Part shown: in pieces, positions 34,107 to 38,174 of the stretch
How positions within the stretch are numbered: position 1 is the first letter of the stretch
Layout of the letters: each line of letters begins with the position of its first letter
Notes under the pieces: model-generated
The model's input: the letters and a program-made list of their open reading frames with translations, nothing else
Databases searched by the model: none
Told to the model about the DNA's origin: nothing
Origin: Candidatus Omnitrophota bacterium
GTDB taxonomy: Bacteria; Omnitrophota; Gorgyraeia; Pluralincolimonadales; Pluralincolimonadaceae
Reading direction: 5' to 3'
Assembly (NCBI GenBank): GCA_041653595.1
Contig: JBAZFB010000002.1
Coordinates: 68,579-132,578 of the forward strand
DNA length: 64,000 nt
Position numbers and translations under genes: made by a program

Positions 34107-34116
34107 TCATAATCCT

Positions 34117-34150
34117 CTGCAATTATATCTGTTGCAGAGGATTTTTGTTT
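34117..34150 (+). terminator. intrinsic terminator after the CPBP gene / left island boundary
   Basis: CCTCTGCAA-ttatatctg-TTGCAGAGG followed by ATTTTTGTTT. Confidence 0.6.
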
Positions 34151-34260
34151 GGAGTAGAATGAATTCAGTGGAATGTCCCATAGTGGCACGTCCCAAAACC
34201 ATATAAGGTGTAAAATAAACAAAAATCTTATAATTTTTAGTTAGTCAATAGGAGGGGAAA

Positions 34261-36591
34261 ATGAACATAGCCGAACTTAAAGACCTAACCCAGTCATTTC
34301 TTAAAACTCACGGTTACAATTTTAAAATAACTGGAATCGAAAATTCTATTCTTTTTTCACGACCTACGGGTATGGGAGTTAGTGATGAGATATTAATATA
34401 TTTTCATACGAAGGGCGACGAAGGATATATTGACTCAAGGCTGGGAGATTTAAATGCAAAATATAAGGGAATTTCCGGAGGAGAGTCAGGAAGAAAGTTT
34501 TTTCTCTCCCTAACCTCATTAGCAGGCGACGTTCTTGAAGAAGTAAAGAAACATAGTTTTAAATATCAGGTTCCAGTTTGGTTTTTTGATAGAGAGTTTT
34601 CTGTTGATAAGAAAACAACTCCTTTAAAACAATTGGAAGAACGGGCAAGGGAATATGAAACAGAAAGGATAGGCCAGCCGTACAAAATAGGTACTGTGAT
34701 CAAGAAGAATGATTTATTAATGGATCTTTTAGATGAAATTGAGGAATCAGAAAATCCCTGCTTAAGAATAATAATTGCTCCAGCCGGCTATGGGAAAACC
34801 GTATTGATGGAAACATTATATACAAAAATGAATGAGAAATTCATTAAGGATAAGCAGGAGCAGGTGATAAGCAGAAGACCTTTGCTCATGTTGCCTGGGC
34901 ATATAAGACAAGCCAAAGATTTGGACAGTCTAATCAATAATTTTATCGGTGAAGAGTATGAATATGGAGTTATTAATGAAAATACTTTCAAATTCATGGT
35001 AAAAAATAATCTTGCGATCTGGTTACTCGATGGTTTAGAAGAATTAATTTTAAGAATACCTGAAGAGCTCATTTTTGCGTTACTCGAAGATTACATAGTA
35101 TCTGGAGATGCAAAGGCCCCTCAAATTGTTATTGCTATCCGTAAGCCTGTTCTTAGTACTTTGCCAGAACTAAAAGAATATTTACAAGATTATGATAAAT
35201 GGATAAAAATTTATGAATTGAGTGAATGGGGGAAAGAGGAGAAAATAGCATATTTTGAAAAAAATCTAACTATAAGTAAAGATGAAATAGATAATTTCAA
35301 GAAGGATCTCACCAAATCAGGCCCTTTAAATGAAATTTGTAACGTACCGTATTATTGTAGTTTAATTGCTGATTTAAAAAATAACCACGAAATGCAAATT
35401 TTTTATGACGAATGTGAACTAGTTAAATATGCAACTGAAAAATTATGTGAGAGGGAATTTAGTAAGGACCTTGATAAAGATATTTTCCCCGTGAAGAAAC
35501 AGCTGGAATTTTTCAAAGAGCTCGCAGAAGAAAGTTTTATAAATGGGAAGATTCTAAAAGATATTTTGATAGAATATGCCGAAATTGAATTATCAGGTGT
35601 TCAGGAAACTGTGAAGACGAATCAGATTAGTTGTTTGCAAAGGCATGCTCTTTTAACCCAGGTGGGGGAAGATTTTGACATTATGCATGATATCGTTAGA
35701 GATTATTTGTTGGGACTGGAGTTTTCAGAACATTTGGAAAAATGTAATGTTAAGATCTTTGACATCAAAGAAATCGAAGACGATTCTTTTATTTTACGTT
35801 GCTTGATTAAGAATTCTCAAGTTATAGGTTTTAATTGGGAGAAGATTAAGGCTGAAATTTTAACATTTCATTCCTCTCCGGGCGACTCTGCATATGGATT
35901 CCGCAACGTTTTAAAATTTATTCTATACATTGATCCACAGAATGCTCAGAAAATAATTAAAGATATGTTATCCAATAGAAATCTTACTGGATTAACTTTT
36001 AAAAATATTGATATGCGTGGCTTTGAATTCCAGTTCTCTAAACTAGATTCGACCAGATTTGAGGGCTGTAATTTAGAGAATGCTAATTTTAGTCGCTGTT
36101 ATTTTAGAAATGCGTTTTTTAGTTCAAAATGTGTTCTTACGGGAGCATTAATTAAAGGGGCCATTCTAGATTCTATAGTTGATGAGAAAAAGGAACGTTT
36201 TGATTTAAAAGAAATTCGTGAATATCTTTACGAAAGAACAAAAGTTATTCCTGAGAGTAAAGAACCTTGTCAAGCAGTAATAAATCTTAAAAGAGTTTTA
36301 GAAAAACTTGCTAGAAAAGACAGAGAGTTTAAATTACCTAAAAAATTTCTAATTCAGACAAAATGTAGCGGAGGAATTAGTGCGAGTAGATGTGTAGAAA
36401 CTGCAGTAAAATATGGAGTTTTAGCAGATGATGGAATTCGCATAAAGATTAAAAGCAGTTTATTTGACGAGGTTAATGATTTTGTATTGAATCCTAAGTC
36501 AAAAGAAATACATGCTTCTTTGCACAAAATTTTAGACGATATTTGTCTTGAGGTAAAAACAGGATGTAAACATATTTATTTGGAACAATAG
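34261..36591 (+). CDS. STAND/NACHT-like P-loop NTPase with N-terminal unknown domain and C-terminal pentapeptide repeats (candidate antiphage sensor)
   Basis: Walker A 'APAGYGKTVLMETL', Walker B 'AIWLLDGLEEL'. About 12 pentapeptide repeats 'NLTGLTFKNIDMRGFEFQFSKLDSTRFEGCNLENANFSRCYFRNAFF'. GC content far below the flanks. Confidence 0.65.
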   Translation: MNIAELKDLTQSFLKTHGYNFKITGIENSILFSRPTGMGVSDEILIYFHTKGDEGYIDSRLGDLNAKYKGISGGESGRKFFLSLTSLAGDVLEEVKKHSFKYQVPVWFFDREFSVDKKTTPLKQLEERAREYETERIGQPYKIGTVIKKNDLLMDLLDEIEESENPCLRIIIAPAGYGKTVLMETLYTKMNEKFIKDKQEQVISRRPLLMLPGHIRQAKDLDSLINNFIGEEYEYGVINENTFKFMVKNNLAIWLLDGLEELILRIPEELIFALLEDYIVSGDAKAPQIVIAIRKPVLSTLPELKEYLQDYDKWIKIYELSEWGKEEKIAYFEKNLTISKDEIDNFKKDLTKSGPLNEICNVPYYCSLIADLKNNHEMQIFYDECELVKYATEKLCEREFSKDLDKDIFPVKKQLEFFKELAEESFINGKILKDILIEYAEIELSGVQETVKTNQISCLQRHALLTQVGEDFDIMHDIVRDYLLGLEFSEHLEKCNVKIFDIKEIEDDSFILRCLIKNSQVIGFNWEKIKAEILTFHSSPGDSAYGFRNVLKFILYIDPQNAQKIIKDMLSNRNLTGLTFKNIDMRGFEFQFSKLDSTRFEGCNLENANFSRCYFRNAFFSSKCVLTGALIKGAILDSIVDEKKERFDLKEIREYLYERTKVIPESKEPCQAVINLKRVLEKLARKDREFKLPKKFLIQTKCSGGISASRCVETAVKYGVLADDGIRIKIKSSLFDEVNDFVLNPKSKEIHASLHKILDDICLEVKTGCKHIYLEQ

Positions 36592-36721
36592 ATGAATAGG
36601 CCAGAGGACATTTATTTATTTAAATTAATGCAGCTAGGTGTCTATTAGTGAGACTTGTAGGTACTTTTTGGGCACCCAAATTTGTATGGCACCGGCCTAA
36701 TTGCTATGGTAAAATCAAGAT

Positions 36722-37282
36722 ATGCTTGAAGAAGAAATAACTGAAACTCCAGAAATTGATGAAGCTTTACTCAAGGAAGCTGTTCAGCGTGATGCGGGAA
36801 TTTGTCGCCATTTGTATCATGGAACTTCTAAATTTCTTGCCCACGAAATTCAGAAAAATACCAAAATAAAAATAGGGAGCGAAATTGGTTATATGGGTTA
36901 TGGTTTCTATTGTTATATATATGATATTAATGCAAGTAAAATTTGGGCAAGGGAAAAGTTTGGAGAAGAGAAGATCTCCGTCCTGAAAATCGTAGCAAAT
37001 TTAGGAGATCTCCTCTTTATTTATAATGAGTTATATGATATTCTTAAAGAAAAGGCTCATAAGGCATGTAAGGGGAATACGGGGAGATTACATCAATTTA
37101 TAGGTCTAATAATTGAGAAAATTATTAAAGATATTCTTAGCTCTAAACATGGAATAGAAATAAGCGCTGTTTGTAGTACTTACTACTTGAAGCAACAGAA
37201 GGAAAGCCGTCTCACGACAATGTATTCCTTGCGAAACGAAGAAATGGTTAAAGACATTAAAATAGAATGGGAGGAATTATGA
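36722..37282 (+). CDS. hypothetical protein, candidate toxin of a TAC module (possible ADP-ribosyltransferase-like H-G-T / GYGFY motifs)
   Basis: 186 aa, AT-rich. 'HLYHGTS' and 'GYMGYGFYCYIY'. First gene of a three-gene overlapping operon ending in a SecB-like gene. Confidence 0.35.
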   Translation: MLEEEITETPEIDEALLKEAVQRDAGICRHLYHGTSKFLAHEIQKNTKIKIGSEIGYMGYGFYCYIYDINASKIWAREKFGEEKISVLKIVANLGDLLFIYNELYDILKEKAHKACKGNTGRLHQFIGLIIEKIIKDILSSKHGIEISAVCSTYYLKQQKESRLTTMYSLRNEEMVKDIKIEWEEL

Positions 37283-37599
37283 AAGAGAATATTTCAAGAG
37301 AACAGCTAACTAAAGAAGTCAAGGAATACCTGGCCGCTTTCTCTGATGAGGAACTCTGCCTTGAGCTATTAAAAGAAAAGAAAAGAATTGAGATGGAAGT
37401 TATAAAAAATTTAGGATGGTTAGGTAGAGATGTTCTTAGAGCGATTATTGATCTTCCCGAGGTGGAGGATGTCGTAACTAAAAAAGACGAGAGGAAGGAC
37501 GAGAAAAGGTCTCTATGGAATTCAGTCAATGCTTCTGGCGGCAATAAAATTCCTTCATTACCGATATTTCATGGAGATTTTTATTCGGAGGCTGCTTAA
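37279..37599 (+). CDS. hypothetical protein, candidate antitoxin with chaperone-addiction-like aromatic C-terminal tail
   Basis: ATGA overlap with upstream gene, GGAGG RBS. C-terminus 'RSLWNSVNASGGNKIPSLPIFHGDFYSEAA'. Stop overlaps the SecB-like start (TAATG). Confidence 0.35.
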   Translation: MKENISREQLTKEVKEYLAAFSDEELCLELLKEKKRIEMEVIKNLGWLGRDVLRAIIDLPEVEDVVTKKDERKDEKRSLWNSVNASGGNKIPSLPIFHGDFYSEAA

Positions 37600-37994
37600 T
37601 GGAAGCTACCAAACAACCGGGAATAAGATTTGTTAGGGTTTTCCTTTCAAAATTACGCTTTGAGTTACCTGAAGTACCGCCTAAAGAATTCAAATATAAC
37701 TTCAGTTTTTTAGACAGCCACAAAATTGAGGGAAACTCTCTAATATGCACCATTGCCATAGAACTTTACGATAAATTCCAGGTTGAATTAACCGGGCTGT
37801 TTGAAATTATTGAAGGGGCAGAAAATATGAGCTTAGAGCAATTTGCCAAGGTAAATGCCCCCGCTTTAATGATGCCTTTCGCTAGAGAAATCATAAGCAA
37901 TATAACATCCAGAACGCCGTTACCTCATCTTTTGTTACCCCCTATCAACATCATTGCTATAAAAAATAAGACAATAGAAGAAAAGAAACCGTAA
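37599..37994 (+). CDS. SecB-like chaperone
   Basis: 'VNAPALMMPFAREIISNITSRTPLPHLLLPPINIIAI' aligns with the SecB C-terminal region '[32 protein letters not shown]'. N-terminal 'RVFLSKLRFELPE' resembles SecB beta-1. Confidence 0.7.
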   Translation: MEATKQPGIRFVRVFLSKLRFELPEVPPKEFKYNFSFLDSHKIEGNSLICTIAIELYDKFQVELTGLFEIIEGAENMSLEQFAKVNAPALMMPFAREIISNITSRTPLPHLLLPPINIIAIKNKTIEEKKP

Positions 37995-38174
37995 GGTAAT
38001 TTTAAGAAATAAATCACTAGCTTAATCAGAAGGCAGCTCTCAAAAGGGGAGTTGCCTTTTTTATTGAGAGGCGGTTTATGCGAAGAATATTGGCTGTTAA
38101 TATTATTCTTTCAGGCTATAAATAGTTAAGACTCGTGAAGGAAAACCTCTGAAAACCGCCATATTTCTGGGATC

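Follow-up and report, generated by a model that had tools for sequence, protein, structure and literature searches.

In the CmdTAC system, the toxin CmdT has a fold like that of diphtheria toxin and an HY-[E,D,Q] triad, modifies adenine at N6 within GA dinucleotides of single-stranded RNA and prevents translation (PMC11618068). In both CmdTAC and HigBAC, the antitoxin carries a chaperone-addiction tail whose aromatic residues dock into pockets of the SecB-like chaperone of toxin-antitoxin systems (SecB-TA), and the C-terminal Ala-Ala of the antitoxin CmdA is a ClpX degron; its change to Asp-Asp abolishes CmdTA toxicity (bioRxiv 10.1101/2024.02.24.581848). Bacterial NACHT modules include restriction-endonuclease-like, pentapeptide-repeat and Cys/His C-terminal domains (bioRxiv 10.1101/2022.07.19.500537), and at least 90 STAND families associated with defence are counted in a survey of 2026 (PMC13581612). 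Divergent relatives of both types appear to lie side by side in a stretch of 64,000 nucleotides (the window) from contig JBAZFB010000002.1 of a Candidatus Omnitrophota bacterium, in an AT-rich block (34195-38170) between a CPBP protease gene and lexA. This block is probably the exchangeable cargo of a lineage-specific defence hotspot beside lexA, received from a low-GC donor (GC, guanine plus cytosine content) and composed of two independent systems, a NACHT-type NTPase and a toxin-antitoxin-chaperone module. The features of the locus are as follows.

34094-34194, plus strand: left border, a conserved element of ~100 bp comprising the CPBP terminator hairpin, GGAGTAGAATGAATTC and GTCCC-N10-GTCCC (34175-34194)
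34261-36591, plus strand: NACHT-type STAND NTPase of 776 amino acids (aa)
36722-37282, plus strand: 186-aa toxin, predicted CmdT-like ADP-ribosyltransferase, with invariant H33 (LYHGT), Y63 (GFYCY) and E103
37279-37599, plus strand: 106-aa predicted antitoxin, its ATG within an ATGA overlap with the toxin stop codon and GGGAGGA upstream
37599-37994, plus strand: 131-aa SecB-like chaperone (CmdC / SecB-TA type), in TAATG overlap with the antitoxin gene
38028-38066, plus strand: intrinsic terminator with a 14-bp stem followed by UUUUUU (-20.7 kcal/mol, z = -3.7), closing the toxin-antitoxin-chaperone operon
38172-38210, plus strand: right border, the lexA promoter, with a palindrome between its -35 and -10 hexamers and the lexA ATG at 38211

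The block departs sharply in composition from the DNA around it. Its GC content is 0.339, against 0.515 ± 0.017 in 4-kb windows outside 31-41.5 kb (z = -10.4), and the lowest 4-kb value elsewhere in the 64-kb window is 0.475. Each 400-bp window from ~34.1 to ~38.1 kb falls between 0.30 and 0.38, and GC at third codon positions (GC3) is 0.27 in the 776-aa gene and 0.29, 0.35 and 0.37 in the three that follow, with values of 0.70, 0.56 and 0.58 in the flanking genes for CPBP, LexA and DinB. Tetranucleotide usage, normalised for mononucleotides, reaches its lowest correlation with the rest of the window (0.44) at the block. The sliding-window GC and tetranucleotide check proposed in the initial annotation of the locus hence reveals an extreme break; the ~35% GC estimated there for the block compares well with the measured 33.9%, while the ~55% given for the flanks was too high (~47-53%). 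The layout it described, four co-oriented genes of which the last three are joined by ATGA and TAATG overlaps, is also borne out, and its gene coordinates stand as to layout but need amending in detail, the antitoxin being of 106 and not 110 aa and the lexA and CPBP genes starting with the ATG codons at 38211 and 33312, respectively.

Relatives of the locus were retrieved with a LexA search of species-representative genomes and a lexA-promoter search of metagenomes, which together yielded five loci (L014, L015, L016, L031 and L032) on related Omnitrophota genomes or metagenome contigs. L031 extends only ~1.8 kb upstream of lexA, with its left border out of view, and the comparison is therefore of the other four. 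In all four, whose sequence reaches far enough upstream, lexA is directly preceded by an AT-rich block (GC 0.28-0.42), and L014, L015, L016 and L032 all lack the four window genes, the reverse of the case that had been named as refuting horizontal acquisition, in which all relatives share the same four genes at this place in ordinary composition. Their cargo is instead the following.

L016: a DUF2130 gene and a Lamassu system, with LmuA (Cap4-nuclease and CTD1 domains), the middle component MComp1, and LmuB (E = 4e-61)
L014: several unknown genes, a cupin, an M78 peptidase, a Beta_protein gene (PD-Lambda-2_B/C models) and a cII-like gene
L015: unknown genes, a cupin, an AAA_15 ATPase matching NsnB (E = 4.6e-40) and AriA, and a small partner
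L032: an 897-aa protein with no defence match

Homology between the window and these relatives stops at ~34192-34194 and restarts at ~38172, in agreement with the abrupt edges first placed at the CPBP terminator hairpin and the lexA promoter. Two of the five loci came from the lexA-promoter scan of metagenomes; one shows both borders and a different cargo, the other has too little DNA upstream to be judged, and neither is an empty site. The presence of the same borders around different AT-rich cargo in four relatives argues for a defence hotspot and not for a one-off insertion, and the combination of a compositional break with differing, mostly recognisable defence genes sustains the earlier proposal of a horizontally acquired defence/addiction island. 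One Logan contig corresponds exactly to window positions 33928-38211, and its ends fit graph branching in the shared flanks, although this is weak evidence. Viral contigs scanned for the toxin and NTPase families returned nothing, and there is hence no evidence that either is carried on phages.

Both borders have a recognisable structure. On the left, GGAGTAGAATNAAT lies between a terminator with a 13-bp stem and the GTCCC-N10-GTCCC motif, and the hairpin (34111-34143; -19.1 kcal/mol, z = -4.5) makes a strong terminator together with its T-run. With 82-92% identity, the element also opens the AT-rich blocks of L014, L015, L016 and L032, and the genes upstream of it differ: the gene before it is that for CPBP in the window and L015, and that for a pyrimidine-dimer glycosylase in L014. 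Two copies are present in L014 (2245-2309 and 6267-6340), the second directly 3' of the cupin gene and splitting the cargo into two blocks, an arrangement that looks like a cassette array, with no recombinase in view. On the right, the lexA promoter consists of TTGACA (38175-38180), an N17 spacer and TATATT (38198-38203), an 11/12 match to the promoter consensus with a TG element; the TTG at 38175 is thus part of the -35 hexamer and not a lexA start codon. With the end of the -10 hexamer 7 bp ahead of the ATG, the lexA transcript may lack a leader. The promoter is near-identical in L014, L015, L016 and L032, and the DNA further upstream is unrelated between genomes. The terminator at 38028-38066 lies close to where the cargo ends on the right. 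The promoter spacer is filled by CCACACAAATGTGTGG (38182-38197), a perfect palindrome of 16 bp that five relatives retain and that is a candidate for the LexA operator of this lineage.

The variable region extends beyond the left element. The gene for a 497-aa secreted protein with fn3/Ig-like domains (31794-33287), on the far side of the CPBP gene, is also AT-rich (GC 0.39, GC3 0.35) and is absent from L014 and L015, where a pyrimidine-dimer glycosylase gene lies upstream of the hotspot instead, indicating that variation reaches to the left of the CPBP gene.

Within the cargo, the three overlapping genes that close the block are best described, on the evidence of sequence and predicted structure, as a divergent toxin-antitoxin-chaperone module of the CmdTAC (PD-T4-9) type, which refines the SecB-containing three-gene module of the initial annotation. 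The chaperone is the most readily identified component, matching Pfam SecB (E = 6e-11, 42.9 bits against a cut-off of 26) and the PADLOC model PD-T4-9_C (E = 7.2e-10). A housekeeping SecB role was considered for it and rejected, since it scores only 42.2 bits against the 102.8-bit cut-off of TIGR00809 and lies far below the cut-offs of all PRK05751 variants. The toxin-antitoxin-chaperone order recurs with the same overlaps in five homologous loci set in unrelated contexts, next to SIR2-HerA, an N6/N4 methyltransferase, or HicAB with an insertion-sequence (IS)-like gene, on contigs that are themselves island-like in composition (28-38% GC). In homologous loci (L006 235-435, L027 597-818, L030 55-276 and L008 65-286), a conserved gene of 66-73 aa lies upstream, its product containing …NPAAVALGRLGGLKGGKARAEKLSAxxRKEIAKKAANARWGK, and in L006 and L027-L029 an IS-like gene of 277-279 aa lies downstream; the window triad has neither gene.

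A homology search with the antitoxin returned only the antitoxin itself, and its homologues were therefore taken by position from the contigs of toxin homologues. Their N-terminal half is conserved and includes the segment (K/R)KW(I/L/M)AS(F/Y)S. The C-terminal tail, rich in charged and small residues, contains KRSLWNS, F98, F102 and Y103 in the window protein and ends in Ala-Ala. A tail motif, (D/E)xxxFxW(S/T/A), is found in six of six antitoxins compared, the decayed one of L002 included, and the Ala-Ala end in all five antitoxins from loci with an intact toxin gene (the window and four others). The antitoxin that ends differently is that of L002/L003, where the toxin gene is frameshifted. 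In their sequence, these features of the tail match those published for the chaperone-addiction tails of CmdA and HigA (bioRxiv 10.1101/2024.02.24.581848).

The toxin itself is more remote. The 186-aa protein has an identical counterpart in a Candidatus Omnitrophota metagenome-assembled genome. Searches against Pfam, NCBIfam and PDB sequences found no match for it, and its close subfamily has few members (14 database clusters by one search and, by another, 16 representatives at E <= 1e-30). In 13 homologues with 37-52% identity, LYHGT, GYLGxGFYCY and glutamate 103 are invariant, and the AlphaFold model (predicted local distance difference test, pLDDT, of 90.1) shows an ADP-ribosyltransferase fold of the diphtheria-toxin type, the H-Y-[E/D/Q] triad included. 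When 1.84 billion representatives were searched with the family profile, 113 proteins were returned. Beyond the close family, these include proteins of ~170-180 aa, of which 33 of the 38 aligned match PD-T4-9_A, the PADLOC model of CmdT, and alignment of the two profiles with hhalign gives a probability of 99.5% (E = 4.5e-23) over 166 columns with H, Y and E aligned. Such a profile-profile match, together with the aligned triad, indicates that the toxin probably belongs to the CmdT superfamily as a remote member beyond the reach of the existing model; judged from sequence, it appears to be a remote homologue of CmdT, linked to it through the group that matches PD-T4-9_A.

One alternative reading accepts the module and denies it a role in immunity: the three genes would mainly be an addiction cassette that retains the island or another element by post-segregational killing, with no sensing of phage. 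In their first descriptions, toxin-antitoxin-chaperone systems appear as stress-responsive modules (PMC3581621, PMC5105189), homologous triads adjoin an IS-like gene and HicAB, and the frameshifted toxin of L002/L003 is what decaying toxin-antitoxin loci are expected to show. The best specific match of the chaperone is nevertheless the phage-defence CmdC model, the site of the triad holds Lamassu and other defence systems in relatives and triads elsewhere adjoin SIR2-HerA and a methyltransferase, and the two E. coli systems of this type that have been characterised both protect from phage. Pure addiction thus seems unlikely, and the two roles are in any case not mutually exclusive. Slightly less likely again is a different chemistry, in which the toxin consumes NAD+ as a phosphorylase or glycohydrolase of the MbcT/RES-like kind, or modifies DNA or protein, and not mRNA. 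The invariant H-Y-E set follows the pattern of the diphtheria toxin/PARP clade, as in CmdT, and not the Arg/Ser of RES proteins, and the full-length profile homology is to CmdT-type proteins.

For a CmdTAC-type module that acts in defence, we infer the triggers, the toxin target, protease dependence and phage protection, together with the effector chemistry of the NTPase described below. In the uninfected cell, the SecB-like chaperone would hold the antitoxin tail, with its tryptophan and other aromatic residues and its Ala-Ala end, and the antitoxin so held would remain stable and keep the ADP-ribosyltransferase neutralised. Upon infection, a newly made phage structural protein could compete for the chaperone, and the freed antitoxin would be degraded by a ClpXP-type protease. 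The released toxin would then ADP-ribosylate its target with NAD+, most likely single-stranded mRNA as for CmdT, so that translation would stop and the infection would be aborted.

The 776-aa protein that opens the block belongs, by its fold, to the NACHT-type STAND ATPases, which agrees with the STAND NTPase first proposed. An N-terminal alpha/beta domain (~1-115) is followed by a nucleotide-binding domain with a P-loop at 173-180 (APAGYGKT) and a Walker B motif at 254-261 (WLLDGLEE), by helical and winged-helix domains to ~565, by a pentapeptide beta-helix (~570-645) and by a C-terminal Cys3-His module. In a Foldseek search with the whole protein, the nearest structural matches are NLRP3, NOD2 and NLRC4, and Avs4 is also matched. 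Sequence alone identifies only the pentapeptide repeats (~570-645), with sub-threshold matches to NACHT and AAA_16. There are 45 homologues with 38-60% identity, all but two of 756-792 aa, and in 38 aligned sequences the Walker A residues G176, G178 and K179, the residues D257, E260 and E261 of the Walker B motif (LLDGLEE) and R294 are invariant. C670, C762, C769 and H771 are likewise invariant and look like a metal site on the basis of their sequence pattern. The N-terminal domain shows the alpha-beta-beta-beta-alpha-beta order of restriction-endonuclease folds, and its invariant residues lie in FSRPTGxG and (Y)QVPVWFFDREF, with SRPTGxG invariant and FFDREF near-invariant. By analogy with bacterial NACHT proteins and Avs, the pentapeptide beta-helix and the Cys3-His module would bind a ligand derived from the invader, binding would relieve autoinhibition, and ATP-dependent oligomerisation would gather the N-terminal domains as the effector.

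It is conceivable, if doubtful, that the locus departs further from described systems, with the 776-aa protein founding an antiviral NACHT family with three unusual features and, separately, the toxin acting on a substrate other than mRNA. The N-terminal alpha/beta domain, which has the SRPTGxG and FFDREF motifs and lacks a canonical nuclease triad, might represent a novel type of effector, and the short pentapeptide beta-helix together with the Cys3-His module a novel type of sensor. The family may also have been exchanged between ultra-small bacteria (Omnitrophota) and DPANN archaea: two of the homologues carry archaeal labels of metagenome-assembled genomes (Nanoarchaeota and Micrarchaeia), on contigs of only 3-9 kb that make the bin assignments weak. 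The divergent CmdT-like subfamily, for its part, could have a substrate other than mRNA.

Homologues of the NTPase occur as lone genes at three distinct loci, where their neighbours are DUF87, methyltransferase and HicB genes, a relaxase and type IV secretion system coupling protein, or an IS66 transposase. These surroundings, together with the defence cargo of relatives at the same site, are what points to a possible anti-phage role of the NTPase. None of these three loci carries the triad, and none of the five distinct loci with a homologous triad carries the NTPase. Since the two are never adjacent in homologous loci, they are taken to be independent systems. A single four-gene system, with the NTPase sensing infection and controlling the toxin-antitoxin-chaperone module, would fit the common orientation and composition of the genes, the lack of a detected terminator in the 130-bp gap between them (36592-36721) and the one Logan contig that spans exactly the four; it is nonetheless highly improbable, given that each part is a complete known architecture in its own right, and was rejected on the gene contexts of the homologues.

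Several observations run counter to the interpretation of the block as a defence hotspot with two defence systems. As to the hotspot, a number of cargo genes in the relatives lack a defence annotation, and no empty site was found among the relatives examined: the direct adjacency of the CPBP gene and lexA that was to be looked for in close relatives was not seen, the site being occupied in every one. No integrase or transposase lies within 34.1-38.2 kb, a search for direct repeats flanking the island found none, the sole tRNA gene of the window is at 49.6 kb, away from the island, and a search for Rfam families as marks of integration was negative. With none of these marks present, the mechanism of exchange can only be deduced indirectly, and recombination through the conserved borders is its presumed route. 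As to the module, PD-T4-9_A does not match the toxin at E <= 1 in a direct PADLOC scan, the antitoxin matches nothing in the libraries of hidden Markov models, PD-T4-9_B included, and a standard scan would hence not call the system. As to the NTPase, the Pfam NACHT score is 15.4 bits against a cut-off of 26.7, PADLOC models match none of the 38 family members, and a profile of the N-terminal domain gives only noise against PDB and Pfam. The PD-(D/E)xK set is not strictly kept in that domain (D42 in 27/38, E43 in 26/38, K51 in 22/38), and with neither a sequence match nor a conserved nuclease set the effector is left unassigned. The PADLOC scan of the four proteins envisaged at the outset thus recognised the chaperone and missed the toxin, the antitoxin and the NTPase, of which the toxin was placed through profile and fold. 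The other direct matches of these three were weak or spurious (PDC-M10A at E = 0.005, Stk2) or missing and were set aside. That the block is native DNA with a composition shaped by local mutation or selection, for which the lack of mobility genes, tRNA and flanking repeats might speak, is scarcely tenable and is contradicted by the comparison with relatives, in which flanks 82-92% identical enclose unrelated genes, by the drop in GC3 from 0.56-0.70 to 0.27-0.37 and by the scatter of homologues of both systems over unrelated contigs.

A dispersed motif had been linked to the island by its initial annotation, which placed GGGAC copies at both edges. The copies named (33291 and 34176) bracket the CPBP gene and not the island, and the motif was rejected as an attachment repeat because it is dispersed in the window and absent from the lexA edge. 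It is intergenic and reads GTCCC-N5-TGACACGTCCC, with GGGACGTGTCA-AAAGGGGAC as its reverse complement; CACGTCCC occurs five times against 1.09 expected, a count reached in none of 100 shuffles. Its copies are as follows.

21129-21148, minus strand: motif copy
26096-26115, minus strand: motif copy
27193-27212, plus strand: motif copy
31808-31827, minus strand: motif copy
33291-33309: degenerate motif copy
34175-34194, plus strand: motif copy, within the left border
40322-40333, minus strand: motif copy

At least six copies lie ~20-110 bp upstream of plus-strand gene starts, a count taken over the copies from 26096 to 40333. GGAGTA(A/G)AAT(A/G)AA(G/T)TC precedes the motif at 27169-27216 and 34151-34198. 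The motif may be a promoter or a regulator site.

Other features surround lexA. A 103-aa gene between lexA and dinB (38790-39101), with 89-96% identity in relatives and a weak DUF6504 match, is probably part of an SOS mutagenesis cassette. Downstream of dinB, a second small AT-rich patch (40430-40950, GC ~0.38) contains a reading frame that by eye resembles those of DNA-binding proteins of the ORF6N/KilA-N type, with an apparent stop near 40484, and may be the remnant of a mobile element. On the 6.6-kb contig of L015 (5510-6610), lexA is cut after about residue 94; next come a thiol-peroxidase-like gene with 96% identity to window 26139-26651 and, after it, a match to window 41143-41268. Neither the 103-aa gene nor dinB was found on this contig, and the truncation reflects either a rearrangement or a misassembly.

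The locus offers a clean, bounded example of a defence hotspot in the Omnitrophota, an uncultured phylum with little-described immunity, and its border sequences (the lexA promoter and the repeated terminator element) offer a means of collecting further cargo from metagenomes. It also adds to the CmdTAC-type systems a subfamily of toxin and antitoxin that escapes the present defence-finder models, which implies that defence scans under-count such systems. Furthermore, it brings to light a NACHT family of compact proteins, with more than 45 members and an N-terminal domain not assigned to any family, as a candidate for experimental work. Current understanding is not overturned by these observations: both systems appear to be divergent members of familiar anti-phage types.

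Compared with defence hotspots described between core genes, this one shares conserved borders, unrelated defence cargo in relatives and a skewed composition, and differs in having no integrase or attachment site, with a repeated terminator element on its left and the lexA promoter on its right. The NTPase resembles the bNACHT and Avs STAND ATPases in being encoded by a single gene, in its central NACHT-like ATPase flanked by an N-terminal non-ATPase domain and C-terminal repeats, and in having defence genes and mobile elements as neighbours. It is shorter, at 776 aa, than the matched Avs structures (1534-2004 residues), its presumed sensor is a short pentapeptide beta-helix and not a set of tetratricopeptide, leucine-rich or WD40 repeats, and no catalytic motif can be recognised in its N-terminal domain. 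HigBAC of E. coli NT1F31 and the toxin-antitoxin-chaperone system of Mycobacterium tuberculosis (Rv1955-Rv1957) likewise use a SecB-like chaperone to keep the antitoxin stable through an aromatic-bearing chaperone-addiction tail; their toxin, however, is a HigB ribonuclease and their antitoxin a helix-turn-helix protein, whereas here the toxin is a predicted ADP-ribosyltransferase and the antitoxin has no helix-turn-helix match. Closest of all is CmdTAC (PD-T4-9) of E. coli ECOR22 / O112ab:H26 (PMC11618068; bioRxiv 10.1101/2024.02.24.581848), which has the same gene order, a SecB-like chaperone of the kind that matches PD-T4-9_C, a small diphtheria-toxin-like ADP-ribosyltransferase with an H-Y-E triad, a short antitoxin with an Ala-Ala end and a tail of the chaperone-binding type, which the tail here resembles in sequence, and a setting among defence genes. 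The module described here differs from it in a toxin that is only ~18-23% identical to the CmdT-like group, carries ~20 extra N-terminal residues and is missed by PD-T4-9_A, in an antitoxin with no detectable similarity to PD-T4-9_B, and in its host, an uncultured Omnitrophota bacterium.

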